In this document: in pieces, positions 39-32,875 of the stretch
Position numbering within the stretch: the first letter of the stretch is position 1
Layout of the letters: each line of letters starts with the position of its first letter
Source of the DNA: Sulfurovum sp.
GTDB taxonomy: Bacteria; Campylobacterota; Campylobacteria; Campylobacterales; Sulfurovaceae
Length of the DNA: 64,000 bases
Strand: one strand, 5' to 3'
Assembly (NCBI RefSeq): GCF_024762315.1
Contig: NZ_JANTHR010000002.1
Made by a program: the position numbers and the translations under genes
Notes under the pieces: generated by a model
What the model was told of the DNA's origin: nothing
Seen by the model: only the letters and a program-made list of their open reading frames with translations
The model's database searches: none

Positions 39-1550
39 TCAGCCATCCATGAGTCCGACACGGATCGCTTCTTCATAGCTTGTTTCTCCTGCAAGAAGCA
101 TCTCTTTAAGCTTGTCTGCAATAGTCTTCATACCGTTTCTTTTCATTGCATCGCGGATCTGATGATCATTGAGCCCGTCTTTCATCATCTCTTTTACCTG
201 ATCATCAACAATAAATAGTTCACCTATAGCCTGTCGGCCTTTGTATCCTGTAAAGTCGCACTCTTTACATCCGACTGCTTTGAAGTAGAGCTTCTCTTTG
301 GGTACCCCTATCTCCTCTGCTGTTGCCGGAGAGAGCAGAGATTCCTCTTTGCAGTGCGCACAAAGCCTTCTTGTAAGCCTCTGTGCGAGTACTCCCAAAA
401 GCGTAGCAGAGACAAGAAAATTCTCTATGCCCATATCCATCAGACGGCTAAGTGAAGAGGTAGCATCATTGGTATGCAGGGTAGAGAGCAGCAAGTGCCC
501 CGTCAAAGCGGAACGCAATGCAATATCCGCTGTTTCAGCATCACGTATTTCTCCTACCATGATGATATCCGGGTCCTGTCTCAAAATAGAACGCAATCCT
601 GAAGCAAAGGTAAGCCCGACCTTGGCATTAACCTGTATCTGGGAGATATTTTCTGCATTGTACTCAACAGGGTCTTCTACTGTGATAATATTTTTGTCCG
701 GTGTTGAAATATGCTGTAAGCATGCATGCAGTGTAGTGGATTTACCTGAACCCGTAGGTCCGGTCACCAGTATCATCCCGTGTGCATGGTTCAGCAGTCT
801 ATAGAGGTTTTTCGTAATGTCGTCCTGAAATCCTAACGATTCAAGTGTCGGTATATGTTCACTCTGTGCCAAGATCCTCATGACCACCCTCTCACCATGA
901 TAGGTAGGAAGCACGGAAACCCTTACATCCAAAGTTTTTCCGGAAATAGTGATCTGTGTACGTCCATCTTGCGGCAATCTCTTTTCAGAGATATCCAGAC
1001 TTGAGATGACTTTAATCCGGTTGATCACCAAGCCGGTAATGGTTCTCTCCAGATCAAGATGCTTTTTAAGTGCCCCGTCTATACGAAGCCTGACCTCGCC
1101 TTTTCTTTCCTGGCTCTCGATGTGGATATCACTTGCACCTTTTTTGATGGCTTGGAAAAAGAGAGAGTTAACAAGCTTAATAATGGGCGCAGAGTCCTCG
1201 CTGGAGAGAAGGTCCTGTGAGTTTCGAATGAACTCAAGCAGGTCACCCTCCACCTCTATGAGTTCTTCTGAGGTGGTTGACATATCTTCAAAATCTGAAC
1301 CTGTCTGTATCTCTAAAAATTTATTCTTTAGTCTTTCAAAACTCTCTTCATCAAGAAGTGTGATAGGGTAATCAAGAGAAAGTTTGGCATAATAGTTTAA
1401 GGCATCCCCTAAAGTATTTTGTTCAACGATCGCTGTCTTTGCACCGTCAATGGTGCTAAAGAGCAGAGAATGTTTCAGGGCAAGCTTATGGTTGATCTCT
1501 TCTTCCCAGAGAGGTTCAAGATTGACATCCTTTAGGCGAGGGAACTGCAT
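39..1550 (-). CDS. gspE: Type II secretion ATPase GspE (PulE/GspE family)
   Basis: 503 aa. Walker A GPTGSGKSTTL, Asp box IMVGEIRD, His box LSTLHTND. C-terminal tetracysteine CAHC...CKEC typical of GspE. Long N-terminal domain. Adjacent to the secretin gene. Confidence 0.9.
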   Translation of the reverse strand: MQFPRLKDVNLEPLWEEEINHKLALKHSLLFSTIDGAKTAIVEQNTLGDALNYYAKLSLDYPITLLDEESFERLKNKFLEIQTGSDFEDMSTTSEELIEVEGDLLEFIRNSQDLLSSEDSAPIIKLVNSLFFQAIKKGASDIHIESQERKGEVRLRIDGALKKHLDLERTITGLVINRIKVISSLDISEKRLPQDGRTQITISGKTLDVRVSVLPTYHGERVVMRILAQSEHIPTLESLGFQDDITKNLYRLLNHAHGMILVTGPTGSGKSTTLHACLQHISTPDKNIITVEDPVEYNAENISQIQVNAKVGLTFASGLRSILRQDPDIIMVGEIRDAETADIALRSALTGHLLLSTLHTNDATSSLSRLMDMGIENFLVSATLLGVLAQRLTRRLCAHCKEESLLSPATAEEIGVPKEKLYFKAVGCKECDFTGYKGRQAIGELFIVDDQVKEMMKDGLNDHQIRDAMKRNGMKTIADKLKEMLLAGETSYEEAIRVGLMDG

Positions 1551-1552
1551 CC

Positions 1553-3541
1553 TTACTCCTCTGTATCCAAGATACTAAGATTGCTTTTGTGTGTTCTACG
1601 TATTCTACGGTGGGCAGGTGCGATCTTAATAGTTGCATCTTCTTCTATGCCTGTCTCCTTATTGAGCCCTTTGCGGACAAAGGCATTATATTTGGTCTGA
1701 ATCTCTTCGAGTTCACTGAGTACCTGTCTTAACTGCTGCAGGTCACCACTTTTTCTAACAATATACGGAGTCAGGTAGATTACAACATTGATCTTGTTGG
1801 ACATGTCTCCTCTGGAGGTAAAGAGTTCACCCAAAATAGGAATATCTCCTAAAAGCGGCACTTTAGTAACACTTTTCCCTCCCGACTGCTTCATAAGTCC
1901 ACCTAAAATGATCGTCTCGCCGTTATTGACAATGGCATTGGTTGTAACTTTTCTCTTTGTTGTAGTAGGTCTGTCTGCAGACGCACTTGAACCCGGCAGA
2001 ATGTCTTCTATCTGTGCTTCAACTTCAAGGGTTACCTTATTGTTGCTGGAGAGTCTTGGTTTGACTTTTAGCGTAATACCGATGTCTTCTCTGGAGTAGT
2101 TGTTAATGATATTCCCCTGTCCCTGTGTCGACTGCTGCGCCTGCGTCAAGATGGACTGTGTACGCCCTACCTCAATGGAAGCTTCTTTGTTGTTTGTACA
2201 CAAAACAGACGGCTCACTCAAAATATGTGCTGCACCGTTTTGTTTAAGCAGATCCAACTTTGCACCTAATGCAAAAACTTCACTAATACCGTCGTCGAAT
2301 TTAAAAGGTCTGCTCTCGCTTGTAATTGCATTTCCGTTATTATCCAGTTGTGTAGTCTGGGTATTCAAAAAGCCCAATAAGGTAGGGGAAATCATCAATG
2401 AAGAAGCTCCCAGATTTGCTGCTGCAGAAAAAAGCCCTTGTGAAGTGATTTTTCCTCCTTCAAATCCGTAACGTATTCCTATCTGCTCAGCCAGATCCGT
2501 ATTGATCTCCACAATACGTGCTTTCACATAGACCTGTACCTTGGGAATATCTATCTTCTTCACCGTCTCACGGATATTCCTGATCTGCTCTCCTGTTGCA
2601 AGGACGATCAGGGCATTTCTCTCTACATCAGAGACGACCATGGCTTTACTGGGTGGTTTTGCACCTTTTCCAGGCTTTTTAATGGCAACATTATTCATCT
2701 GCGCAACAAGCTTTGAGAGTATCTTCTCCATCTCTTCTACATTGGAGTTCTTTAGACGGATCACATACATTTTTTGCGTCTGGTCTTCACCCTTCATGTC
2801 AAGCTGTTTGATATAGCGGATCATGCGGCTGTTGTTCTCCGGTTTTCCTACCAAGATAATGGAATTGGTCGCTTCATCTTTAAATACATCTACTTTTTGG
2901 CTCTCTATGGTTTGCGGGAAAAGCTTCTTGGACATACTCTGGGCATTTTTGAAAACATCTTTCACCGAGGAGTTCTGTAGTCTGACGATCGTTGAGCGCT
3001 TCTCACCTCTCTCTTCTACTGCCTTAATGATCTTGGCAATGGAACGCAGGGTTCTTGGGTTGGCTGTAATAGCCAGTACATTATTCTCTTTAAAGGAGAT
3101 TACTTTGGCGTTCTTATGAAGCAATGGTTTGATCTTTGCACGGATGACCGCTGCGTTGGAGCTTTTAAGCGGGAACATCACAGTTTTCATCGTATCTCCC
3201 TCAATACTGCTGCTTACAGGGAGCCCTTCTCCTGCAGCATTGGCACTCTTGACCACCTTGTAATACTCACCCTGATCTACCAGTGTCAAGCCTTTACTTT
3301 GCAAAATGGAATTTGCCAATGGAAGCAGGGAACTCTTTTTAATCGGTGTTGTTGATACAAAGTTGATCTTGCCTTTCAGGTCCTCCTCTATCAAAATATT
3401 TTTATGGGTGATCTTGGAGACCATTTCTACAAAATCTTTAACACTTAGGTTTCGGAAATTCACATCTACTTTTTCATCTTCGGCATGCAGCCCCATGGAC
3501 AACACAAGCAACAGTCCCAATACTATTTTAGTTAATTTCAT
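1553..3541 (-). CDS. gspD: Type II secretion secretin GspD
   Basis: 662 aa. Signal peptide, N0-like start (VDVNFRNLSVKDFVEMVSKIT), repeated N-domains, C-terminal secretin core (VPLLGDIPILGELF). 14-nt overlap with the upstream gspC-like gene. Confidence 0.9.
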   Translation of the reverse strand: MKLTKIVLGLLLVLSMGLHAEDEKVDVNFRNLSVKDFVEMVSKITHKNILIEEDLKGKINFVSTTPIKKSSLLPLANSILQSKGLTLVDQGEYYKVVKSANAAGEGLPVSSSIEGDTMKTVMFPLKSSNAAVIRAKIKPLLHKNAKVISFKENNVLAITANPRTLRSIAKIIKAVEERGEKRSTIVRLQNSSVKDVFKNAQSMSKKLFPQTIESQKVDVFKDEATNSIILVGKPENNSRMIRYIKQLDMKGEDQTQKMYVIRLKNSNVEEMEKILSKLVAQMNNVAIKKPGKGAKPPSKAMVVSDVERNALIVLATGEQIRNIRETVKKIDIPKVQVYVKARIVEINTDLAEQIGIRYGFEGGKITSQGLFSAAANLGASSLMISPTLLGFLNTQTTQLDNNGNAITSESRPFKFDDGISEVFALGAKLDLLKQNGAAHILSEPSVLCTNNKEASIEVGRTQSILTQAQQSTQGQGNIINNYSREDIGITLKVKPRLSSNNKVTLEVEAQIEDILPGSSASADRPTTTKRKVTTNAIVNNGETIILGGLMKQSGGKSVTKVPLLGDIPILGELFTSRGDMSNKINVVIYLTPYIVRKSGDLQQLRQVLSELEEIQTKYNAFVRKGLNKETGIEEDATIKIAPAHRRIRRTHKSNLSILDTEE

Positions 3542-4373
3542 ATTCTAACTCCATTTCTTCTTTTCCTCTTTGAATGACCAAAGTGGCATTCTCTATATTT
3601 TGGATATTTTTATACATTTTAAATGCTGCATTATAGCTATTTATCTCTTGTCCATTGATAGTTTTGATCACATCACCCCTTTTCACTCCCAGTTTGGCAA
3701 AGGGACTGCCTTTTCTCACAAAGGTGATCTTGAATCCTTTAAGGTCTCCACCCTTTTTAACCTCAGTAATACCGATATTTTTATAGATATCATCCATGTT
3801 CTTTGCGTAATGCTCAAGCAGTGCCCGGTCTATGATCTTACGGTCACCGACATCTGTGATCTCTCCTTCAGCTTTGGCAGAAGAGAAAGAAGCTGAAGGT
3901 GCAGCACTCTTTTGAATGGTGCTCACACTTTTACCGTTGTGCTTTCCTTTCAAAAGATCTACTTTATAGGTTTTTGAATTTTTGCTGAACGTTGCAAAGT
4001 TGCTGCCTGCGCCTTCCAGCACAAAACCGTTAATATCATCCCCTTTGGAGAGGACCTTTGTTTTATGCTTATACTCCACTACTATGACAGTTGCATCTGA
4101 AGCATTGTAGATGGCCAAAAGCGTAATGTCCTTAATGCTTCCTGCGGGCTTTCTTGTCTTAGCCGGTGCTTTTTTTACCGGAGCAGGGGCTTCATTGGGT
4201 GTGAGCTTGACCCTGTAGTAGAGAGACTTTCCGCCTGTCTCTTCCACATGCTCTACCCCTGAAGCAGGAAGCCATTTCATCTCCACAGCGAACCAGGCAA
4301 GCTTGATGAGTACCAAAAGTACTAAAATCGTGATGATCCACCTAAAGGCTGCGGGCTTAAAAAGATGTTTCAT
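3528..4373 (-). CDS. gspC: GspC-like T2SS inner-membrane protein (TM + HR-like region + C-terminal PDZ)
   Basis: 281 aa. N-terminal TM (WIITILVLLVLIKLAWFAV), central beta-rich region, PDZ-like C-terminus (GFKITFVRKGSPFAKLGVKRGDVIKTINGQEI). Lies directly upstream of gspD. Confidence 0.6.
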   Translation of the reverse strand: MKHLFKPAAFRWIITILVLLVLIKLAWFAVEMKWLPASGVEHVEETGGKSLYYRVKLTPNEAPAPVKKAPAKTRKPAGSIKDITLLAIYNASDATVIVVEYKHKTKVLSKGDDINGFVLEGAGSNFATFSKNSKTYKVDLLKGKHNGKSVSTIQKSAAPSASFSSAKAEGEITDVGDRKIIDRALLEHYAKNMDDIYKNIGITEVKKGGDLKGFKITFVRKGSPFAKLGVKRGDVIKTINGQEINSYNAAFKMYKNIQNIENATLVIQRGKEEMELEYEIN

Positions 4374-4872
4374 AGTACCATCCTTTCTCGTCTTTTTTCA
4401 ACTGTGACTTAATGGAGTCTATCTCTTTAGGTTCAATAAAATCCAAACGAAGTGTTCGTTCTTTCAGGTCGGCATCTCCATCAACCAGACCGAAACTTCC
4501 TTCTGCGTGGATGGATACATTCAATACAGAGAACAGAGTATGGGTCAGTACAGCTTTGTCTGTATGTTGCGGTGCCATGGATTTAAGCGAGTCATCCAAC
4601 ACCAGATTATCGATCTGGGCTTTTGTATAAAAGAGCAGTGTGAAAAAGCTTACCTTTTCAACTGTTGCGACCTTGATCCCCTTCACATAGACCGAAGCAT
4701 TATGAAGTGTCAACGAGAAAACACCTTCATCTATGCTCTCTTCATTGACCTCTACACCCTGTTTCGCAAGCTCTTTTTCAAGTTTGTAGTAGAGCTCCTG
4801 CTTAGGCATGAAGAACAGAAGTGCAAACCAAGCAACAAAAAGCAGTATGAAAATTTTTTTTACCATTTGCAT
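4357..4872 (-). CDS. Bitopic membrane protein, possibly GspN-like (positional call only)
   Basis: 171 aa. A single N-terminal TM (IFILLFVAWFALLFFM) then a periplasmic domain. Overlaps both neighbours inside the T2SS operon. I recognise no diagnostic motif. Confidence 0.3.
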   Translation of the reverse strand: MQMVKKIFILLFVAWFALLFFMPKQELYYKLEKELAKQGVEVNEESIDEGVFSLTLHNASVYVKGIKVATVEKVSFFTLLFYTKAQIDNLVLDDSLKSMAPQHTDKAVLTHTLFSVLNVSIHAEGSFGLVDGDADLKERTLRLDFIEPKEIDSIKSQLKKDEKGWYYETSF

Positions 4873-5261
4873 TTAAACTCCACATTGTAGGATGAGCCGA
4901 CCTTTTGTATGTCAAGAAGCTGTATCTGTACAGCAAGATTCATGATCTTTGTCGTAAGCTTGTTCAGCTCGCTTGCGCTTAATCCTGTATAGGTTGCTGT
5001 AAGCTTTTTGCCTTTTTTGCTCCATTTTACTTTGGATGCAGGCATAAGCTCTTTTAACTTATCCAGCTTTTTGGAGATCTTTTTGTCTGCCCAGACCCTT
5101 TTGAGAGCTACGATCTCTTTGAACGCATTAACCGATTGTTTCAATTCTCCTGCCTGTTTCGCTCCTGAAGAGACCTGGGCATTCTTGTAAAAAAATGCTG
5201 TAAGCATCAAAAGCAGTGCCAAAAGTGCGATGAGTTCATTCTGATGTTTTTTCAGATTCAT
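4860..5261 (-). CDS. Bitopic membrane protein, GspM-like (topology and position)
   Basis: 133 aa. N-terminal TM (LIALLALLLMLTAFF) plus a ~100-aa periplasmic domain. 4-nt overlap with the upstream GspL-like gene. Confidence 0.35.
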   Translation of the reverse strand: MNLKKHQNELIALLALLLMLTAFFYKNAQVSSGAKQAGELKQSVNAFKEIVALKRVWADKKISKKLDKLKELMPASKVKWSKKGKKLTATYTGLSASELNKLTTKIMNLAVQIQLLDIQKVGSSYNVEFKCKW

Positions 5262-6193
5262 AATACCCCCTCGATCTCAACACTGTTTCTTCCCGTATTT
5301 TTCACTTTTGGGAATTTTTCTTTTTTTGCCAACTGACTCAGACGCCCGGCTACTTTTTCATCACTGCAGGAGAACTGTGCTTTAAAGCCTTTGTCATTGA
5401 CCAGAAGGGAAGTCAGGGTAGCCCCTTTGAAGATAAGTCCTGAGAGCGATTTAATGATCTCTCTTTTTCTTCTCTCTTTACTGTCTATGCTTCTATATTT
5501 GTCTGCGATGCTCTCTCTTTGTATCCTACTCTGTAAAGAGGGGTATGCTTCCTGAAGTTCCTGCATCTCTGCCTGCAGCGCATTTGAACCTTTGGAATAA
5601 CGCAGGCCCTCTGCCGTAAATATCGCCGCAAAGACAATAAAGATCACTGCTAATGCTATTGCCTGTTTCATCGTCAACAATGAGCCGCCATGCATCCCTT
5701 TAAGCGTAATGCCTGTTCTTGGAGTAAAACTATTGGTGAACGGTATGGGTTTTACCTCTTCATCCAATGCTGCCTGAGGAACTACCACAACGGTATTGTC
5801 CAAAGCGACCAGTGCCTCACCCTCACCCAAAAGTACCGGTGCCGTAAAATGCTCAAGCGCCTGTTGAGCAAAAAAGATCTTACCTACCTCTTCGGGCTTG
5901 ATACCTTTAGAAAGAAGCAATGATCTTATCTGCCCCGGATTATAGGCGATGAATACCCATTTGCCCTCTTCTTTGTACACCAGGTACTCATAGGTACCCA
6001 CTTCTTCAAGCAGTCCCTCAAAAAGAGAAGGTGCTATCTTTTTGGCCTGGTAGAGATACTTCACCGGAAGTTCTTCTTTTTTAAGCGTGTAGTACTGCGG
6101 CGTGAGCATCACATCTACACTGTGTGAGAGAAACACACGTTTCATCCCGGCATGGACCAGCAGCAGTTCTTTATTGCTTCCCATAAAATTCAA
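5258..6193 (-). CDS. GspL-like assembly-platform protein (topology and position)
   Basis: 311 aa. ~175-aa cytoplasmic domain, one central TM (AIALAVIFIVFAAIFTA), ~110-aa periplasmic domain, which is GspL architecture. Embedded in the operon. Confidence 0.4.
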   Translation of the reverse strand: MNFMGSNKELLLVHAGMKRVFLSHSVDVMLTPQYYTLKKEELPVKYLYQAKKIAPSLFEGLLEEVGTYEYLVYKEEGKWVFIAYNPGQIRSLLLSKGIKPEEVGKIFFAQQALEHFTAPVLLGEGEALVALDNTVVVVPQAALDEEVKPIPFTNSFTPRTGITLKGMHGGSLLTMKQAIALAVIFIVFAAIFTAEGLRYSKGSNALQAEMQELQEAYPSLQSRIQRESIADKYRSIDSKERRKREIIKSLSGLIFKGATLTSLLVNDKGFKAQFSCSDEKVAGRLSQLAKKEKFPKVKNTGRNSVEIEGVL

Positions 6194-7130
6194 AATTTTT
6201 CACCTCTCCTTGAATATCTACAAACCTAAACATAAATCTCTCACCACCGTACCCATACACTATCTCACACCAAGACATAGGCAGAAACTCTTTTGTAAAA
6301 AGTTTTGGACTGTACTTATCGCCTTCACCCATATTTTGTACAAATGTTTTAAGTTTCATCTCACTCTCTATCCACTCTTCTTTTACGGTCGCCAGATCGA
6401 TATCGAAAAGCAAAGAGATCAGTTCAGGTGATATATAGTCTCCGTCTATCCTGTCTCCTGTGACTACTTTTCCTTTTTTGTCTTTTTTGATCTCGTTGAA
6501 TACAAAAAACTTTTTCCAGGGTACCCTGCTTACCTTCGGATCATCCGCTTCAAACTGATAACGCTGCAAAATAGCCTCAAATTGTCTGAATGATATAATA
6601 CCATTTTTTTGTCGAAGTCTGCTTTGCTCTCTCTGCACAGATGTCTCATCCGGCTTTCCAATCTCCTCAAGTATCATATCCTGCAGTCTTGTCGCATCTT
6701 CCAAGCCGTAGCTTTGGACAATAGACTCAAACACTTTCTGTGCGGAAGTATACTGCTCTTGCATTTGCTGATCATTACCTAGCCCCATCCAGTTGATATT
6801 CACACCGTTCGCCAGGGGACGGCAGTGAACCATTACTGAGAACCTTCCATCTTCTGAAGCAAGCGGGATAGCTGTCTGATAGAGTTGTGTATAGAGTCCT
6901 TTTCTGTTTTTCTTAAATTTTTTATCAAGCATTTGCTTAAGGTCTGAATAATAGAGATCTCCCTGTATGAGCGCCTTGGTATAGGTCGCATCCCGTCTGA
7001 CATTGTCAAGGTACCCTATAAGTACCCCTGTCAAGGCAATAATGACTGCCAGTACAGAGAGGGTGAGGATAAGGGCAAACCCTTTTCTGTGGGAAACTCT
7101 TTGGGGTATGGTATATGTGGGTTTATCCAT
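6171..7130 (-). CDS. gspK: GspK-like minor pseudopilin
   Basis: 319 aa. Prepilin-like N-terminus HRKG|FALILTLSVLAVIIAL lacking Glu at +5, as in GspK, and a large globular domain. First gene of the minus-strand operon, divergent from gspG. Confidence 0.5.
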   Translation of the reverse strand: MDKPTYTIPQRVSHRKGFALILTLSVLAVIIALTGVLIGYLDNVRRDATYTKALIQGDLYYSDLKQMLDKKFKKNRKGLYTQLYQTAIPLASEDGRFSVMVHCRPLANGVNINWMGLGNDQQMQEQYTSAQKVFESIVQSYGLEDATRLQDMILEEIGKPDETSVQREQSRLRQKNGIISFRQFEAILQRYQFEADDPKVSRVPWKKFFVFNEIKKDKKGKVVTGDRIDGDYISPELISLLFDIDLATVKEEWIESEMKLKTFVQNMGEGDKYSPKLFTKEFLPMSWCEIVYGYGGERFMFRFVDIQGEVKNFEFYGKQ

Positions 7131-7187
7131 TTAAAAGCTCTATTAAAGTAAAATCATATTCGAAAGATTATTATACCAAGGATTGAT

Positions 7188-7634
7188 GTGAAAGAACTAA
7201 AGAACTTAGAAACTAAAAAATTAAGAGCAGGGTTTTCCCTGATAGAATTACTCATTGTCATCGTTATCTTGGGCGGGCTGGTTGCAGTTGTGGCACCAGG
7301 GCTTATGGACTCTGCAGAGCAGGCAAAAAGAGATACGGTATGCCTTAAAATGAATGACCTTAAAAAGAGACTTGATATGTTCAAACTGGACAATGGTGTC
7401 TACCCGGATACCGAAGAGGGCTTTGAAGCACTTTTAAGCAACCCTGATGCGGACAAGTATCCAAACTACCGTGCAAAACCCTACTTGAAAAAACTGCCTA
7501 AAGATTCATGGAAGACGCCTTTCGTCTACATTAAAAAAGGAGATGATGTAGAGATCATCTCTTTTGCGGCTGACAGGAAAGAAGGAGGGGAAGAGAACGG
7601 CAAAGATATACTCTTTTCTGACTGCAACAAATAA
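7188..7634 (+). CDS. gspG: Major pseudopilin GspG
   Basis: 148 aa. GTG start with AAGGA 6 nt upstream. Class III signal ...KKLRAG|FSLIELLIVIVILGGL with Glu+5. Typical GspG body (DNGVYPDTEEGFEALL..., PFVY). Confidence 0.9.
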   Translation: MKELKNLETKKLRAGFSLIELLIVIVILGGLVAVVAPGLMDSAEQAKRDTVCLKMNDLKKRLDMFKLDNGVYPDTEEGFEALLSNPDADKYPNYRAKPYLKKLPKDSWKTPFVYIKKGDDVEIISFAADRKEGGEENGKDILFSDCNK

Positions 7635-7670
7635 TAGACTTCATGCTGATACTCAAAAAGAGGCGGACAG

Positions 7671-8195
7671 ATGCATAAGGGATTCTCACTCTTGGAACTT
7701 CTTATTGTTATTTTGATCGTCTCGGTCATCTATTTCCTTGGCTTCAGCGGTATTGAAAGACCTGAAAGCAAACCTAAAGCCCTTACCCCTTTAAATTTAA
7801 AATCCGTCATCATGAAATCCAAAGGCTTTCATGGAGAAGCTACGCTGATGTGTGTAGATAAATGCCGATCCTGCTATTTGCGCAGCGGTGTACAGAATGC
7901 TTTTGCGCCCTATGAAAACGGTATTGACCTTAAAGATATAGAGGCATACACATTGGATGAAAGAGAATCTCTTTTGCGTTTAGAGTATGGCAGATACAGG
8001 GACAAAAAGATCTGCCTGGTATTGGATTTTTACCAGAATGGAAGCAGTACACAGATCATTTTGAAAGATGATGAAGGCGTCTATTTCCTTCCTTCATTTT
8101 TTGGTGAAGCACAAAAGGCAGACTCGCTTGAAGATGCCAAAGAACTTTGGCTTAAAAACAGTGACCTTGTCTCTAACAGTGGAGATTTCTATTGA
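7671..8195 (+). CDS. Minor pseudopilin (GspH-sized)
   Basis: 174 aa. Leader MHKG|FSLLELLIVILIVSVIY with Glu+5. Confidence 0.7.
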   Translation: MHKGFSLLELLIVILIVSVIYFLGFSGIERPESKPKALTPLNLKSVIMKSKGFHGEATLMCVDKCRSCYLRSGVQNAFAPYENGIDLKDIEAYTLDERESLLRLEYGRYRDKKICLVLDFYQNGSSTQIILKDDEGVYFLPSFFGEAQKADSLEDAKELWLKNSDLVSNSGDFY

Positions 8196-8599
8196 AACCG
8201 TTACGCCCTGCTTTTACCATTATTGAAGTGCTCATCTCTGTACTTATCCTCTCTACCTCCATTGTCTATGTCCTGCAGGTACATTCGCAAAACCGTGAAC
8301 GGATCATTTATATTTCAGAGAGAAACAAGTTATCATTGCAGGACTCTCTTTTTTTAACACCTGATGTAGTCAAGTACCATAAAGACAAAAAAGAAGCCTA
8401 TGAGCTACTGCAACGCCATTTTAAAATAAAAGAGATGAAAAGCAGAGAGATCTTAAAAAAGATCTCCAGGGAATTCTTCATCCCCGAGCAGATCACGATC
8501 ATACCGCCGGAAGAGACTGGAGGCTACGGTGCACTGGTTGATGAGATCAAAATTAAAGACAAATACTCTTCATCGTATTTTCATTTCAAACTGCAGTAG
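8192..8599 (+). CDS. Minor pseudopilin (GspI-sized), atypical leader
   Basis: 135 aa. MKPLRPA|FTIIEVLISVLILS with Glu+5 present but Ala rather than Gly at -1. TTG start overlaps the preceding stop (TTGA). Confidence 0.6.
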   Translation: MKPLRPAFTIIEVLISVLILSTSIVYVLQVHSQNRERIIYISERNKLSLQDSLFLTPDVVKYHKDKKEAYELLQRHFKIKEMKSREILKKISREFFIPEQITIIPPEETGGYGALVDEIKIKDKYSSSYFHFKLQ

Positions 8600-9075
8600 T
8601 GACGTTTCTTGCTGTTTTTAATGAAGGCGATGAAAAGTCCCAATCCCGTAAGCATCAACAGCGCATTCCCCACAAGATCATGCGACCAGTAGAACTCCTC
8701 CTGCCCGTTACCGGTCTGTGTAGCATAGGACACAAACAGAAGACGCATTATGTTGACTACGGAAAAAACAATATACCCTATGAGCAGCCAAAGCAGTTTA
8801 TGTAACACAGAAGAAGGGTAGGCAAGAATGGAAGCAAAGAGAAAAAGTATAGGGATCATCCCGTTACAGGCTTGATTGATAATGATCTTATAGTGTGGGT
8901 TTACCCAGATATCTATGCCTTTTAGTTGACCCGGTTCCAGAAATAGCCCGAGGAGGAAAAGTGTAAGCTTTGTCTGCCCTTCATTTAAAAGTGTAGAGAG
9001 CGCTGAGGTAGGTGCATAGAAAAATACGAACAACAAAGCCAAATAAAGAAAATAGAGTGCTGCAAATCGTTTCAT
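8581..9075 (-). CDS. Small polytopic membrane protein of the exosortase/archaeosortase (EpsH-like) family
   Basis: 164 aa, ~5 TM segments. Ordered motifs NQACNGM (Cys), VNIMRLL (Asn-x-x-Arg), WSHDLVGN (His-x-x-x-Gly) match the catalytic Cys/Arg/His layout of exosortases as I know them. No HMM was run. Confidence 0.55.
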   Translation of the reverse strand: MKRFAALYFLYLALLFVFFYAPTSALSTLLNEGQTKLTLFLLGLFLEPGQLKGIDIWVNPHYKIIINQACNGMIPILFLFASILAYPSSVLHKLLWLLIGYIVFSVVNIMRLLFVSYATQTGNGQEEFYWSHDLVGNALLMLTGLGLFIAFIKNSKKRHYCSLK

Positions 9076-9146
9076 GTGAAACTATAGCTAGATACAGCTA
9101 AAAAAGTTATAATACTACAATTCATGATACAAGGATCATCAGGTTA

Positions 9147-10361
9147 ATGCTTTTTAAGTACAAAGGGTTTGACAAAACAGGCAAAAAGGTCAAAGGGACA
9201 GTGACTGCAGCTTCTACAGAAGAGGCCGGACAGAAGCTTCGCTCCCGAAACATCTATTATGAATCACTCAACCCTACCAAAGAGTTCTCTCTTGAAGCCT
9301 TTTCCAAGCGCCAAATGCCGGGTGAACTCCTTGCCACCTTTTCCAAAGAGCTCTCTTCTTACCTCAACTCGGGGATGACCATTCTTACAGCCATACGACT
9401 ACTGGAGAATCAACACGAGGGAGAGAAGAAGTATGTCTCTTTTCTAAACTCTGTCAAAACCATGATCGATGAGGGAAAATCACTCTATCATGCCTTAAAA
9501 GCGCAAAAAGTCTATGCCCTTCCGGACTTCTATCTGCAAAGCTTGAAAGTGGCAGGCGAAGGAGGAAAAATGGTCGAGGTGCTGACCAATATGGCCCATT
9601 TCTTTTCCGCACAGAACAAAGTAAAATCCCAGGTCAAAGGCGCCATGATCTACCCCGCTGCCATTTTCATCATTGCCATTGTGATCATCGGCTTTTTGCT
9701 TGTCAGCGTGGTTCCAAAGATCACCCAGATCTTTGAAGATACCGATCAGGCTCTGCCGAAGATCACACAGATTGTTGTGGGGGTCAGTGACTTTTTGATC
9801 GCACACTATATTGGCATTCTTGCGGGCATTATACTTTTTATTATAGCTGTCAAACTGCTTTACGCAAAAGTCTACCCTTTTCATAAAATGGTGGACAGCC
9901 TCATGTTAAAACTCCCACTTATCGGTGACCTGATCCAAAATCATGAACTTGGAAGGTTCTCTTACATCCTCTCGCTGATGCTCGGAAGCGGTGTTGCCTA
10001 CGCACAGGCGGTACAGCTCTCAAAAGACACTTTTTCCAACTATGCGCTCAAAGAACTTTTTGACATGGCTGCTGCAAAAGTGGTTGAGGGGAACAAACTC
10101 TCAAACTCTCTACAGCTCATAAAGGGCACAAAGCTCAAACGTAACTTCATGCAGTCTTTGGCACTGGGGGAAGAGTCAAGTGAAGTAGCAAGTGTTTTAG
10201 ACAATCTTTCACATCTCTATGCAGAGGAGAATGATGACAAGATCAAGATCCTGCTTAGTCTTCTCAACCCTTTCATGATGCTCTTCATCGGCGGATTCGT
10301 CGGGATCATCATTGCAGCGATGATGCTGCCTATCTTTACGATGTCACAGGGGCTGAAATAA
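9147..10361 (+). CDS. gspF: T2SS inner-membrane platform protein GspF
   Basis: 404 aa. Duplicated GspF/PilC domain with three TM segments, typical length and N-terminus (FKYKGFDKTGKKVKGTV). Confidence 0.9.
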   Translation: MLFKYKGFDKTGKKVKGTVTAASTEEAGQKLRSRNIYYESLNPTKEFSLEAFSKRQMPGELLATFSKELSSYLNSGMTILTAIRLLENQHEGEKKYVSFLNSVKTMIDEGKSLYHALKAQKVYALPDFYLQSLKVAGEGGKMVEVLTNMAHFFSAQNKVKSQVKGAMIYPAAIFIIAIVIIGFLLVSVVPKITQIFEDTDQALPKITQIVVGVSDFLIAHYIGILAGIILFIIAVKLLYAKVYPFHKMVDSLMLKLPLIGDLIQNHELGRFSYILSLMLGSGVAYAQAVQLSKDTFSNYALKELFDMAAAKVVEGNKLSNSLQLIKGTKLKRNFMQSLALGEESSEVASVLDNLSHLYAEENDDKIKILLSLLNPFMMLFIGGFVGIIIAAMMLPIFTMSQGLK

Positions 10362-10843
10362 TGGCAAAGCAACGTTTTCGTGATGTAAAACAGGGAAAGA
10401 CCACAAAGCCAGAAAGCAAGCAGAACCCTGATCAAAAAAGAGCCTATGCTTCCAGTGGCAGCAAACTCAAAGCTTTTCTTACGGATGCATTTATGCTTGT
10501 CATGCCCATTATGTACATTGTCTTCTATCTGGTCATGGGTGGGCGTGAAGGCTTTGCAGAGCACAAGCTGCTTGGATGGTTATACATTTTAGTACCGCTG
10601 GTTATTGTTCAAACTGTTTTCATGTTCAAAACAGGGCAAACTCCGGGCTATCGTGCCTATTCACTAACGGTGATAGATGAGAATACGGGAGAAAAGCCCT
10701 CGCTTTTTATCATCCTCTTCAGGAATCTCTGTGCCTTGCTCTCCTTTTTCACTTTTTTTGGCTGGATATTGATGTTTTTCAGAAAAGACCATAAAACATT
10801 GCATGACCTTTTAAGCCGTACCGCTGTTGTGGTCAAAAAGTGA
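10361..10843 (+). CDS. RDD-family membrane protein
   Basis: 160 aa. Basic N-terminus, 3 TM segments, family-typical C-terminus (RKDHKTLHDLLSRTAVVVKK). ATG overlaps the gspF stop (TAATG). Confidence 0.6.
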   Translation: MAKQRFRDVKQGKTTKPESKQNPDQKRAYASSGSKLKAFLTDAFMLVMPIMYIVFYLVMGGREGFAEHKLLGWLYILVPLVIVQTVFMFKTGQTPGYRAYSLTVIDENTGEKPSLFIILFRNLCALLSFFTFFGWILMFFRKDHKTLHDLLSRTAVVVKK

Positions 10844-26153: not shown

Positions 26154-28535
26154 TTACACCTTTCTTATCTCCACATTTGTTTCATGCATTACTGCTGCAC
26201 CGTAAACAGGTTCATGGATATCTTCTAGTAGGGTGGCATCATTTGCACCATTCCCATACGCCATCGTCATATCCTGGCTCAGTCCGCCAAAACCATGTAT
26301 CATAAATACCTGGTTGGGAGCTATTTTTTCAGTAGGATACGCTTTAATGGTTACTTTGCCTACCTTGCTTTTAACTTCGAGCATATCACCAAATTTGATA
26401 CCTTTCTTATCAGCTATTCTTCTATTGATCCAGAGGTAGTTGGTATGGATCAGATCCCTTAGCATCATATTGTTGGTTGTTGCACTCTGTGTAAATTGTG
26501 CATGTCGCCCTGTAATAAGCCTGAATTTACCTTCCGGAACAGAAAAAAGGTATTCATCCTTCCATGTTGGCATGGAATCGACACCTATATCGGCCAAATG
26601 TCTAAAATTAAAGACAAGTTTTATATTGTCTGTTTCCACGCTGTATTTCTTTTTGTTTTCCGGATAGTATTGGTACTCGTTGGCATTGACCTGTTTATGG
26701 TATTTTTCTATATTTGAATAGTAAACGCCCTTTTCTTCCAGAATTTTCCAGGCATCTTCTCCAAATGCTTTTACAACTCTTTCTCTGTTTCTCTCTGCAA
26801 CATCTTTCTCCCAGGCATCGGAAAGTATATAACCATCTTCTTTATATACATTTTTTTCTCCACGCTTCTTTACCTCTTCCTGTAACTCATTATCATATTT
26901 CTTGCTGATCTCAAAAAGAGGTTTGGATAATACTTCAGCTAATTCTTTATATATTTGCTCCGGTGTTTTTGTCTCATAAAGTGGCTCGATAGCAGCTTTT
27001 CTCTGAACAATAGCCGGCTCCAGTAATCCGTAACTGGCAACAGGGGAAGTTCTTTCCAGATAGGATGCCTCAGGCAGAACAACATCTGCATACATCATAC
27101 TGTCGCTTGGTAGGATATCGATCATAACATTCAGATCCATCTGTTTCAAAAACTGAATTGTTTTGGCACTGTTTGGAACACCGGCAATAGGGTTATGCTT
27201 TCTCATGAACATCGCCCGCACAGGATAAGGCGATTTTTTTTCAACAACCATATTTCTAAAGACCATCCATGAACCTGCCCGCTGTGACAAGATGGCTATA
27301 TTGTGTTTATCAAACCTTCCCTGTGCCTGATTATAGATCGGGCTATTAATCTCCTCTTCAGGCAATTCCAAAGGTTCACCATAAATAATTCCGCCTTTTT
27401 TATTTAAATTACCACTTAAACCCTGAAATATCGCCATAGCCCGGCGAAGCTGAAAATCATTTTTACTGAATACACTTCTTCTGCCCTGATAATAGATAGG
27501 ACTTTGGGCACTCATAAATTCTCTGGCTGTTTTAATGATCTCTTTTGCAGGAATATTGGTGATATTTTCAGCCCATTCCGGCGTATACTTATGGGAAATA
27601 ATATGATTTTTATACGCTTCAAACCCCACGCCATATTTTTTTATAAATGCTTTATCGTAAAGCTCTTCTGAAAGTGCTACATAAGTTAAAGCCAAAACAA
27701 ATGCCAGATCAGTTCCCGGATTTACGGCATACCACCTGTCTGCTTTTGCTGCAGTGTTGGTAAATCTGGGATCCAGTACGATCGTTTTGAGACCTCTGCC
27801 TTTACTTCTTTTGAACAGATCCATCGTGTCAGGGGTAATGATGGCTTCCGCTCTGTTCGCTCCCGCAATAATAAGATAATCGGCATTGCTCAGATCTGCT
27901 TCACCATACGTTCCAATCGTGGCAAAATAACCTCCAAGCGTTGTCTCCAGACAGATACTTACTTCATCAACATAATTTACTGTACCGATCTTCTCGCCCA
28001 TTAAGACTTCAAATCCCTCTTTGGAGAGCCCCTCACCATTACAGTAAGCTATGGTGGAACGATTGTCTTTTTCCTCCTCAAGTATTTGGAGCAAGCCTTT
28101 AAACTTATCGGTTCCATGGAGTATGGCATTGTATGCTTCTTCCCATGATACTCTTTTATATTTTCCGTCACCTCTTTCACCAATTCTTACAAGAGGGTAT
28201 TTTAGTCTGTCAGGATCATACGTAGTCTGAATACCCGCATTTCCTCTGGCACATAACATATTTCTTGATTTCGGGAAATAGGGATTGGGGTTTAGTTTTG
28301 TAACAACACCGTCTTCCACTCTTGCAAAGCCGGCACATTTATTGACACATATTCCACATAGAAAAGGAATTTCTTCGGCTTTTTTTGTTGATGTTTTGGT
28401 TGTGATACTTTCAGGTATGCTACTTTTTTCTTTTTTAAAGTAGATAAAATTTGTTTTGCCCATGGCGGAACTACCAATGACTGTTAAAGCGACACTTCCC
28501 TGAAGAAATCTTCTTCGTGATATCTCTTTTGGCAT
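26154..28535 (-). CDS. Molybdopterin oxidoreductase catalytic subunit, Psr/Phs-type, second paralog
   Basis: 793 aa. Tat signal SRRRFLQGS and FS0 motif C-x2-C-x3-C...C (CGICVNKC...LCARGNAG). Collinear with the 30416-32875 protein. Confidence 0.8.
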   Translation of the reverse strand: MPKEISRRRFLQGSVALTVIGSSAMGKTNFIYFKKEKSSIPESITTKTSTKKAEEIPFLCGICVNKCAGFARVEDGVVTKLNPNPYFPKSRNMLCARGNAGIQTTYDPDRLKYPLVRIGERGDGKYKRVSWEEAYNAILHGTDKFKGLLQILEEEKDNRSTIAYCNGEGLSKEGFEVLMGEKIGTVNYVDEVSICLETTLGGYFATIGTYGEADLSNADYLIIAGANRAEAIITPDTMDLFKRSKGRGLKTIVLDPRFTNTAAKADRWYAVNPGTDLAFVLALTYVALSEELYDKAFIKKYGVGFEAYKNHIISHKYTPEWAENITNIPAKEIIKTAREFMSAQSPIYYQGRRSVFSKNDFQLRRAMAIFQGLSGNLNKKGGIIYGEPLELPEEEINSPIYNQAQGRFDKHNIAILSQRAGSWMVFRNMVVEKKSPYPVRAMFMRKHNPIAGVPNSAKTIQFLKQMDLNVMIDILPSDSMMYADVVLPEASYLERTSPVASYGLLEPAIVQRKAAIEPLYETKTPEQIYKELAEVLSKPLFEISKKYDNELQEEVKKRGEKNVYKEDGYILSDAWEKDVAERNRERVVKAFGEDAWKILEEKGVYYSNIEKYHKQVNANEYQYYPENKKKYSVETDNIKLVFNFRHLADIGVDSMPTWKDEYLFSVPEGKFRLITGRHAQFTQSATTNNMMLRDLIHTNYLWINRRIADKKGIKFGDMLEVKSKVGKVTIKAYPTEKIAPNQVFMIHGFGGLSQDMTMAYGNGANDATLLEDIHEPVYGAAVMHETNVEIRKV

Positions 28536-30415: not shown

Positions 30416-32875
30416 TTACACTCTCCTTATTTCTACATTGGTTTCATGCATTGATGCGGCACCATAGACTGGTTCTGTCACATCTTCAATGACCGCATTA
30501 TCGTTTCCACCGTTTTTATAAGCCCAGGTCAGGGCTTCACTCTCTTCACCGAATCCATGTACAAAGAAGATCGTTTGAGGTCCTACTTTTTCTGTGGGGT
30601 ATGCTTTTATTATTGTTTTACCTGTACGACTTGATATTTCAAGTGTATCACCAAACTTAATACCTTTTTCTTCTGCTACACGTCGATTGATCCATGCATA
30701 ATTTTCATAGATCAGATCTCTAAGCATTGCATTATTGGAGGTACCGCTTTGTGTAAACTGTGCATGACGTCCTGTAAGCATTCTGAATTTTCCTTCCGGG
30801 ACAGAGAAATTGTATTCATCTTTCCAGATCGGCATAGGATCAACACCTTTTTTTGCCAGGTTGGGAAGATTACATTCAACTTTTTGACTATGTGTTTTCG
30901 GTTTTCCGCCATTCACACTATAGGCTTTCTCTTTTTCCGGATAATATTGATGTTCATTCACAGAAATTTGCTTAAAGAATTTATCCATATTCGGATAGAA
31001 AACACCATGCTCTTTTAGTGCTTTGACCGCTTCTTCCCCATACACACTTTTTACCATATGTTCATTCACTTCTTCTTGAGAGTGTTCAAACGGTTTTGTC
31101 AGATCAAACTCTGCATAAACTTCTTCTTCTTTCTGTGCCGGGGTCTTTTTATCTTCACCATCACCAAGGTTAGCCAACTCTTCCTGAACATCTTCATCAT
31201 ATTTTTTAGTGATCTCAAAAATAGGTTTAGAAATTTTTTCAGTCAATCCTCTCATGATATCCATTACCGGTTTGGTCTCGAACATCGGATCTACAACTTT
31301 ATTTCTTTGTGCAATAGATGGTTCAATCCCTCCAAATGTTTTAACGGGATCTGTTCTTTCAAGATAGGTACACTCAGGAAGTACGACATCTGCATACATT
31401 ACGGTATCACTTGGCATCGTGTCTATAGTCACTACCAATTCCATTTTTTTCAGCATTTGGGCTGTTTTTTCTGTATTTGGCATATTCATCATTGGATTAT
31501 GTTTATAACAGAACATACCTCTTACTTTATATGGCATTCTGCCTTCCAAAAATCTGTTTCTCCATGCAATCCATGAACCACCGCCACTGACAACAGCACA
31601 ATCAGAATAACCTGCATGCCCTTTTTTAGGGATTTTTGTTTTATCTACCGCTCTTGCTTCTGCTCTGGCATAGATTGGTTCCAATCCTTCATGTTTGCCA
31701 AGTTTCAATTTTTTACCAAAGACCAATCCGCCTTTGGTATCGATTCCTCCGCTCAGTCCCTGGAAGATCGCCATTGCACGACGAAGTTGGAAGTCATTGT
31801 TTGCAAATGTACTTCTTCTTCCGGGATAGTAGACTGCCTTAGGAGCATGTGCCATAAAGTCTCTGGCTATTTGATAAATATCTTTTGCTCTGATACCCGT
31901 AATTTTTTCAGCCCATTCCGGTGTATATTTATTATCAAGTACAGACTTTTTATACTCATCAAAACCGTTGAAGTTTTCAGCGACATATTTTTTATTGTAA
32001 AGTTCTTCAGTAAGGACCACATACGTCAGTGCCAAGACAAATGCCAAGTCGGTACCGGGGTTGATCGCCAACCATTTATCTGCTTTTGCTGCAGTATTGG
32101 TAAACCTCGGATCGATACAGATGAGTTTTGCTCCTCTGCCCTTGGTTCTTTTGAAACCATCCATGGTATCCGGAGTCACGATCGCTTCAGCTCTGTTGGC
32201 ACCTGCCATGATAATATATTCTGCATTCTCCAAGTCAGCTGCAGTATAACCACCTAAAGTAACTCCATAGCCGGATACTACCGTTTGAAGACAAAGTGAT
32301 GCATGGTTCAACCAGTTTGATGAACCAAATGCAGAAAAGAATGTTTTAAAGGTATGTTCAGCCATACCCTCACCCGCACAAAATAAAAATGATGAACGGT
32401 TATCTTTCTCTTCTTCAAGAATTTTTCCCATACCGGGGAATTTATCTGTACCGTTTAAAATAGCATCATAAGCCTCTTCCCATGAAACTCTCTTAAATTT
32501 ACCTTCACCTTTCTCGCCTACTCTTATCATCGGGAATTTAAGTCTATCCGGATCATACAGTGCCTGGATTCCTGCATTACCCCTTGGACAAAGCATGTTC
32601 TTTGATTTTGGAAATAATGGATTTGGATTAAGTTTTGTAACCACTCCATTTTCTACTCTTGCTACAGCAGCACATTTATTAACACACATTTCACATAATG
32701 TTGCTATTTCTTTTGCTTCACCTGTTCCTGTTTTCGTAGTAACCGTAAGTTCACCTTTGGCTTCATGTTCACCATGGCCTGCCAAAAGGTTTGTCACACC
32801 TACACTCGAGCCGCCAATAATACTTAAAGCTACACTACCCTGAAGAAATTTTCTTCTAGACACTTCAACCTGCAT
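30416..32875 (-). CDS. psrA: Molybdopterin oxidoreductase catalytic subunit, polysulfide/thiosulfate reductase (PsrA/PhsA)-type
   Basis: 819 aa. Tat signal SRRKFLQGS, FS0 motif CEMCVNKC...LCPRGNAG, strong SD AAGGAGG 6 nt upstream. Substrate is not determinable from sequence. Confidence 0.8.
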   Translation of the reverse strand: MQVEVSRRKFLQGSVALSIIGGSSVGVTNLLAGHGEHEAKGELTVTTKTGTGEAKEIATLCEMCVNKCAAVARVENGVVTKLNPNPLFPKSKNMLCPRGNAGIQALYDPDRLKFPMIRVGEKGEGKFKRVSWEEAYDAILNGTDKFPGMGKILEEEKDNRSSFLFCAGEGMAEHTFKTFFSAFGSSNWLNHASLCLQTVVSGYGVTLGGYTAADLENAEYIIMAGANRAEAIVTPDTMDGFKRTKGRGAKLICIDPRFTNTAAKADKWLAINPGTDLAFVLALTYVVLTEELYNKKYVAENFNGFDEYKKSVLDNKYTPEWAEKITGIRAKDIYQIARDFMAHAPKAVYYPGRRSTFANNDFQLRRAMAIFQGLSGGIDTKGGLVFGKKLKLGKHEGLEPIYARAEARAVDKTKIPKKGHAGYSDCAVVSGGGSWIAWRNRFLEGRMPYKVRGMFCYKHNPMMNMPNTEKTAQMLKKMELVVTIDTMPSDTVMYADVVLPECTYLERTDPVKTFGGIEPSIAQRNKVVDPMFETKPVMDIMRGLTEKISKPIFEITKKYDEDVQEELANLGDGEDKKTPAQKEEEVYAEFDLTKPFEHSQEEVNEHMVKSVYGEEAVKALKEHGVFYPNMDKFFKQISVNEHQYYPEKEKAYSVNGGKPKTHSQKVECNLPNLAKKGVDPMPIWKDEYNFSVPEGKFRMLTGRHAQFTQSGTSNNAMLRDLIYENYAWINRRVAEEKGIKFGDTLEISSRTGKTIIKAYPTEKVGPQTIFFVHGFGEESEALTWAYKNGGNDNAVIEDVTEPVYGAASMHETNVEIRRV

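Follow-up and report, generated by a model that had tools for sequence, protein, structure and literature searches.

A mini exosortase gene in a type II secretion locus

The stretch of Sulfurovum sp. DNA analysed here (64,000 nucleotides of contig NZ_JANTHR010000002.1, hereafter the window) contains the genes of a type II secretion system (T2SS), among which lies xrt, a gene for a mini protein of the exosortase/archaeosortase family (8581..9075, minus strand, ATG start, 164 aa). A preliminary description of this DNA had singled out the open reading frame (ORF) as exosortase-like, with the motifs NQACNGM, NIMR and WSHDLVG in separate hydrophobic segments. The ORF has this form, and the family assignment is upheld by both general models of the family: PF09721 scores 37.5 bits (gathering threshold 25.7) and the NCBIfam family signature TIGR04178 scores 50.8 bits (cut-off 23). 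The PF09721 alignment covers model positions 101-250 of 254, the C-terminal catalytic core, and thus the protein is a true 'mini' exosortase. The ORF is real and not a product of chance. We identified 544 homologs at E<=1e-3, and 134 representative clusters match at the same threshold in an exhaustive representative search. The nearest database protein, from a Sulfurovum metagenome-assembled genome (MAG), is 97% identical and carries a generic name only ('exosortase/archaeosortase family protein [Sulfurovum sp.]').

The residues proposed to form the catalytic triad are Cys70 (codon 8866-8868, in IINQACNGM), Arg111 (codon 8743-8745, in VVNIMRLLF) and His132 (codon 8680-8682, in YWSHDLVGN). All three are invariant. 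An alignment of 33 diverse representatives, down to 22% identity, has only C70, N108, R111 and H132 as invariant columns. The unique sequences derived from the loci described below, which span 28-96% identity, all (98/98) keep I66, C70, G72, Y101, N108, R111, F128, H132 and G136.

AlphaFold predicts, with high scores (pLDDT 95.4, pTM 0.88), a fold of five helices (residues 2-20, 25-45, 73-85, 90-121 and 125-161) and a beta-hairpin (55-65) that precedes Cys70. The C-terminus is strongly basic. If it is cytoplasmic, as the positive-inside rule suggests, then C70, R111 and H132 would all be no more than about 10 residues away from the periplasmic face, which is where a sorting motif abutting a transmembrane (TM) helix would sit. 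No solved structure resembling the protein was found by sequence search of the PDB or by Foldseek (best E 0.57 and ~1). The Pfam and NCBIfam matches are to the exosortase family only, with no homology to rhomboid or CPBP proteases and no match at E<=10 to the Peptidase_A24 domain of prepilin peptidases (GspO/PilD). We predict that xrt encodes an active, minimal five-helix Cys protease/transpeptidase of the exosortase family, probably belonging to a Campylobacterota-specific subfamily nearest to XrtH.

Genes of the type II secretion system

The T2SS locus around xrt is genuine, in agreement with the preliminary description. GspD and GspG score above equivalog cut-offs, the matches of GspE, GspF and GspC to their families are clear but fall below the cut-offs, and two further pseudopilins of the N-methyl type are encoded. 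The minus strand carries genes for the ATPase GspE (39..1550; PF00437 448 bits; TIGR02533 560.8 bits, cut-off 630), the secretin GspD (1553..3541; TIGR02517 384.1 bits, cut-off 351.35; Secretin, Secretin_N and N0 domains) and a GspC with PDZ domains (3528..4373; NF041515 GspC_delta 112 bits, cut-off 150), which also matches the Synergistota GspC model weakly. These are followed, on the same strand, by genes for a GspN-like protein (4357..4872; weak TIGR04411 match, 20.6 bits against a cut-off of 50) and for proteins at the GspM (4860..5261) and GspL (5258..6193) positions that have no family match; the positions of all three are conserved. The protein at the GspK position (6171..7130, minus strand) has no Pfam or NCBIfam match, but its N-terminus is pseudopilin-like and its position is kept in all loci of the two layouts described below.

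The plus strand encodes the major pseudopilin GspG (7188..7634; TIGR01710 128.7 bits, cut-off 88.85; PF08334) and two minor pseudopilins. These are ppl2 (7671..8195; TIGR02532 25.7 bits, cut-off 16.3; PF07963 22.2 bits, cut-off 21.2) and ppl3 (8192..8599; weak N_methyl motif), the latter convergent with xrt. Beyond xrt, on the plus strand, lie genes for the inner-membrane platform protein GspF (9147..10361; TIGR02120 266 bits over the full length, cut-off 424; PF00482 in orthologs) and a small membrane protein of the RDD family (10361..10843; PF06271 on orthologs), whose start overlaps the gspF stop. The RDD-family gene is kept in all loci with the layout of the window, some of which have an extra unannotated gene (248 aa) between it and gspF (e.g., L014:6867-7613).

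Both junctions of xrt are as previously given: it overlaps the convergent ppl3 by 19 nt (8581-8599) and is separated from the divergent gspF by 71 bp (9076..9146). The convergent overlap recurs, at 4-20 nt, in 18 of 23 loci with this layout. The 71-bp region presumably holds the promoters of both xrt and gspF. A sigma-70 consensus scan of this region returned no site, the consensus being uninformative for Campylobacterota, and a scan for promoter and terminator consensus around xrt gave none above shuffled expectation. Two overlapping terminator-like hairpins were found at 8446-8487 on the minus strand, inside the ppl3 ORF and about 100 nt past the xrt stop. Terminator-like sites in the xrt region number 5, not clearly above the shuffled expectation of 2.4 +/- 1.4.

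Conservation of xrt in T2SS loci of related bacteria

The preliminary description had left open whether xrt is syntenic with T2SS genes in relatives. It is, in two architectures, the second of which came to light in a metagenome scan based on a 7-sequence alignment. Type A has the order of the window, with gspF (-), xrt (+), ppl3-ppl2-gspG (-) and gspK-L-M-N-C-D-E-ppl (+). We identified it in 25 loci, and also in L027, which keeps gspF and xrt but has a gene for a secreted protein in place of the pseudopilin genes. The layout is kept in 13 Sulfurovaceae genomes and in further metagenome contigs, and it persists where the enzyme is down to 36-51% identity. Taken alone, type A synteny is weak evidence, because the wider neighborhood is syntenic too.

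In type B the genes gspK-L-M-N-C-D-E, a pseudopilin gene and xrt are co-directional, with xrt last (53 loci and 7 probable ones). In one such locus (L112) the gaps between gspE, the pseudopilin gene and xrt are of 3 nt each. The genes after xrt are housekeeping genes unrelated to the T2SS (dapF, ppiC, lspA, glmM, thrS). An OmpA-like gene follows the last minor pseudopilin gene at the place where type A has xrt, and gspF is not in the neighborhood. The enzymes of type B are 28-48% identical to those of type A and form a separate sister clade. Thus, xrt has been kept in the T2SS cluster across two layouts and was retained through the rearrangement that separated gspF. One type B context (L079:79-1187) has two tandem mini-exosortase genes before dapF.

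Insertions beside xrt have also left it in place. The largest, in one Sulfurovum MAG (L001:4527-8111), is a type I secretion-like module (TolC-like, HlyD-like and ABC-membrane genes) between gspF and xrt, and smaller ones are found in L003 and L007. Comparison of these sequences indicates that the link between xrt and the T2SS exceeds inherited synteny.

Sorting tails of proteins encoded beside related enzymes

Relatives of xrt outside T2SS clusters almost always lie beside a gene for a secreted protein with a C-terminal tail. Adjacent cargo of this kind was found in at least eight independent contexts (L009, L088, L019/20, L021, L022, L029/30, L078/80 and L092). Aligned on a small-residue/Leu pair, the tails are SSPALNDIS-IALMMLMTLMIGLFF-IRREELNRNKR (L009), GSPAMNKTVGTL-MILMTVLIGLFFV-RREEKYNTNER (L088), GAPSLSLWG-AIAMFIFSIGVGLYY-IRKEEEE (L029/30), SADALNLWT-LMGMMVLLLLGGV-RMGREEQ (L021), STPAYSGWS-ILLIMVLTVLFAY-RNRYRL (L019/20), SLSAVDNTS-MLVTVLAFLGLGG-LMIRRKLIKSKE (L022) and, in the small convergent ORFs of L078/80 and L092, SLGSLNSVG-IGILVVLTSILGSFFL-RDQ... 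The L078, L080 and L092 tails come from targeted inspection of ORFs, and that of L088 is the sole tail accepted from a relaxed scan of the AT-rich loci, which gave mostly spurious ORFs. The consensus is x-(P/S/D/G)-(A/S/T)-(L/M/Y/V)-x-x-(W/I/T/V)-(G/S/T), after which come a TM helix and then basic residues.

The partner signal of XrtH is IPTLxxWG-CTERM (TIGR04174), and the tail motif looks like a diverged form of it. The passenger of the L009 cargo consists of DUF11 repeats. Its homologs in many other phyla have canonical tails of the EIPTLGEWG type, and the Campylobacterota versions have the form S(P/A)A(L/M)(N/G)xIS; this homolog search was swamped by repeats from many phyla.

A small, conserved outer membrane protein (OMP) of beta-barrel type is encoded between the cargo and the enzyme in L009, L021, L029/30, L088 and L108. 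In L111 the cargo and OMP genes are paired with no xrt within 10 kb, which shows that cargo can be encoded apart from the enzyme. Several cargo proteins (L009:724-2931, L021:2-1569, L029:2-977 and L111:10001-12490) have a CxC motif (DCFCDD, TCACM, YCTCID) about 10-20 residues before the sorting motif, and the adjoining barrel has a DCxC motif (DCFC, DCAC, DCIC) near its first strands. The two motifs may form a disulfide tether.

In the tree of the enzymes the deepest branches are cargo-adjacent, as is the sister group of type B. The enzymes of the L009, L088 and L108 cassettes nest inside the type A clade and are 39-75% identical to type A enzymes (63-67% to the window xrt for L009 and L088). 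Thus, the T2SS-linked enzymes are closely related to enzymes that have ordinary cargo.

The cassettes show some further features. A 118-aa C-terminal fragment of PNPase is encoded immediately upstream of xrt in L108 (145-501), in L009 the full pnp gene (5576-7360) is found where the xrt-OMP-cargo island ends on the side away from xrt, and in L114, from a Sulfurovum MAG (7093-9225), pnp-atpE is followed by cargo-type genes. The island looks like an insertion beside pnp, with duplication of the pnp 3' end. The C-terminus of the secreted protein of L027 (8785-10209) could not be recovered through homologs, as the close matches all end at contig ends; its Sulfurovum homolog in L114 is likewise at a contig end, beside pnp. 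Distant Bacteroidota homologs of this RCC1/WD40-like passenger (P0265-P0272) have C-terminal sorting domains of the type IX secretion system. Thus, the passenger is paired with different surface-sorting systems depending on phylum.

In the crude ORF list of the window we also noted two paralogous proteins of about 800 aa (26154-28535 and 30416-32875) that have Tat signals and resemble catalytic subunits of molybdopterin oxidoreductases. They flank ORFs that resemble 4Fe-4S and membrane-anchor subunits, as in a polysulfide/thiosulfate-reductase-like module. A similar gene adjoins xrt in L092 (1433-3919).

Proposed function and alternatives

We propose that xrt encodes an XrtH-like sorting enzyme, that the genes for its cargo are elsewhere in the genome and that this cargo is handed to the T2SS, and we place the probability of this reading at roughly 0.55. 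The cargo would be Sec-exported surface proteins with a tripartite tail, in which a diverged IPTLxxWG motif stands against a TM helix that ends in a basic cytoplasmic cluster. On the periplasmic side of the inner membrane the enzyme would recognize the motif and cleave at it, and the TM helix would probably be swapped for another anchor, as has been proposed for the exosortase family. The released or re-anchored protein would then cross the outer membrane through the T2SS encoded around xrt. Dependence of the cargo on the T2SS is suggested by analogy with other sorting systems (see below). The cargo genes of this genome would be located outside the 64-kb window.

The preliminary description had suggested a sorting or anchoring step for T2SS cargo. 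This suggestion has gained comparative support, from the two architectures and from the cargo of relatives. Several observations weigh against our proposal. First, two systematic scans of the window, in line with the earlier statement, returned no protein with a motif, TM helix and basic C-terminal tail, and proteins with such a tail are likewise missing from all the type A and type B loci examined. Four of the cargo tails gave no match to the NCBIfam CTERM models, including IPTL-CTERM, the sole result being an insignificant one to 'midcut-by-XrtH' (E 0.12). The relationship to IPTL therefore rests on motif comparison and homologous passengers. The T2SS-linked loci are all confined to a single group of bacteria (Sulfurovaceae and relatives), and thus shared ancestry adds to the locus counts. 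The linkage is not obligatory, as the closely related enzymes of L009, L088 and L108 lie outside the T2SS cluster. The view that xrt is part of the secretion locus is correct physically, by its coordinates. However, the probable co-transcription that had been attached to this view is not implied in the window, because xrt is alone on its strand, convergent with and divergent from the T2SS genes on its two sides. Finally, our literature search returned no biochemical data on any mini-exosortase.

The strongest alternative is that xrt is a functional exosortase with conventional cargo, that it came to stand in the T2SS cluster by historical accident, with no functional coupling, and that export takes another route, for example via the small OMP barrel. 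This explanation fits the finding that the T2SS-linked loci are all from related Campylobacterota, with a wider neighborhood that is also syntenic. It also accounts for the deepest branches and several subclades of the enzyme tree, which lie beside cargo and OMP genes with no T2SS nearby, and for the pairing of a dedicated barrel with cargo even where xrt is missing (L111). An accident is harder to reconcile with two different positions in the cluster, occupied by clades 28-48% identical to each other. Nor does it explain why, in type B, xrt is operonic (gaps of 3 nt) and gspF has gone from the neighborhood, or why the inserts in L001, L003 and L007 did not dislodge the gene. We consider a historical accident less likely than our proposal, but plausible.

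It is far less probable that the enzyme processes a component of the secretion machine (a pseudopilin, or a protein at the GspK, L, M or N position) or replaces the prepilin peptidase, as the preliminary description had also entertained. The gene directly adjoins a minor pseudopilin gene in both architectures, several proteins of the locus have no family assignment, and no prepilin peptidase was seen beside the locus, though no test was aimed at it in the window. Moreover, NCBIfam has a 'midcut-by-XrtH' family, and thus substrates of mini-exosortases that are not C-terminal have been proposed. However, none of the T2SS proteins of the window has the motif in front of a TM helix anywhere along its length, and the topology of pseudopilins is the opposite of that required: an aspartic protease cuts their cytoplasmic leader on the inner side of the membrane. 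The enzyme has no Peptidase_A24 signal, and its nested relatives, 39-75% identical to type A enzymes, lie beside classical C-terminal cargo. Both the prepilin-peptidase substitute and the machine-component substrate were rejected on topology and motif absence.

That xrt is a relic or a non-catalytic membrane protein such as a scaffold, as its scores below all curated subfamily cut-offs and the lack of visible cargo nearby might suggest, is hardly credible given the invariance of the catalytic Cys, Arg and His and six other positions across the 98 sequences (28-96% identity), and the full-length conservation and confident fold, which point to purifying selection on the active site.

Significance

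Neither the protein family nor the generic annotation of the gene is new; the clade lies outside all curated subfamily models. New, if the proposal of a sorting enzyme coupled to the T2SS is correct, would be an exosortase-family enzyme as a dedicated T2SS accessory, a Campylobacterota T2SS coupled to a sortase and the first evidence for passage of proteins processed by an exosortase through a T2SS across the outer membrane. We advance this claim of novelty tentatively, at a little less than even odds. Our literature search returned no paper that connects an exosortase with a T2SS, with Sulfurovum or with XrtH function, and a mention in the key 2012 paper is possible.

Exosortases were reportedly predicted in 2006, and to our knowledge the route that takes their substrates across the outer membrane has yet to be established. 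Experimental work on the two sorting-protease families studied so far, which are unrelated, has found the T2SS to be the route for both. The presence of an exosortase gene within T2SS operons, in two arrangements independent of each other, provides a concrete genomic argument for the same route, drawn from comparative genomics within a single bacterial group. If this is true, all three families of polytopic protease that act in C-terminal sorting (rhombosortase, myxosortase and exosortase) would share an export route, which might also account for the arrival of PEP-CTERM and IPTL-CTERM proteins in general at the surface. The system is compact and testable, comprising a single enzyme of 164 aa, a tail with a defined motif and a single T2SS, and the xrt clade and the tail signal could each be given a curated model. 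Hydrothermal vents harbor abundant Sulfurovum, and attaching to surfaces of sulfur and minerals is a central part of its ecology there. S. indicum induces T2SS and adhesion genes when on elemental sulfur (PMC10045233).

Comparison with known sorting systems

The xrt clade fits no named subfamily and no curated model, and is nearest to XrtH and XrtX. XrtH (TIGR04177) is the best named subfamily for the window xrt, at 53.3 bits, with the cut-off of 86 not reached. It is the best or second-best named match for the whole clade, which scores 32-56 bits compared to 103-146 for true XrtH. The window protein resembles XrtH in length (~160 aa), in aligning end to end (residues 3-156 on model positions 2-156 of 158) and in its Cys/Arg/His triad. 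However, two true XrtH proteins, P0191 (102.6 bits) and P0193 (146 bits), are only 22-27% identical to it and are thus distant homologs. Relatives have tails of the form P-(T/A/S)-L-x-x-W-G (e.g., APSLSLWG in L029), and APSLSLWG, TPAYSGWS, ADALNLWT and SPALNDIS resemble IPTLxxWG and stand at the same position on homologous passengers, without matching an NCBIfam CTERM model. The Sulfurovaceae motif has diverged to S-P-A-L/M-N-x-I-S. The S-layer protein of Methylomirabilis is of the IPTL-CTERM type (PMC8671808).

XrtX (NF046081) is the second-best subfamily for the window protein (40 bits against a cut-off of 170). The clade shares its mini size (the model has 168 positions) and at times has it as the top match, but scores of 26-56 bits are far under the cut-off. 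With XrtA/EpsH the superfamily and the catalytic triad are shared. XrtA is a protein of 260-500 aa with at least eight TM helices, in contrast to the five predicted helices of the window protein, for which TIGR02602 gives 23.5 bits against a cut-off of 105.55. The neighbors of xrt are T2SS genes and not genes for exopolysaccharide (EPS), and the tails of its relatives lack PEP. The preliminary description's generalization that exosortases are normally found in EPS loci with PEP-CTERM substrates holds for XrtA/PEP-CTERM but does not extend to mini-exosortases such as XrtH.

It had also named rhombosortase/GlyGly-CTERM as the only established link known to it between a C-terminal sorting enzyme and a T2SS. 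This is too narrow, as MYXO-CTERM/myxosortase and Synerg-CTERM are linked too. A need for the T2SS has been shown experimentally for both GlyGly-CTERM and MYXO-CTERM cargo. Synerg-CTERM (MrtS) co-occurs with a divergent T2SS in which GspC, L, M and N are barely recognizable, and the T2SS of the window, with its highly divergent GspC, L, M and N, is similar in this respect. The enzymes are of different kinds: rhombosortase is a rhomboid serine protease and myxosortase a glutamic protease of the CPBP/Rce1 type, whereas the window enzyme has the Cys/Arg/His residues of exosortases. A further difference is that xrt lies inside the T2SS cluster, and its dependence on the T2SS would follow here by analogy with these systems. 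What xrt shares with T2SS-coupled sorting is its genomic tie to the T2SS, in both type A and type B, and, in the mechanism proposed here, the logic by which a polytopic inner-membrane protease cuts the C-terminal helix of a tripartite tail and the T2SS delivers the product. The likeness is thus one of way of working and not of family membership.

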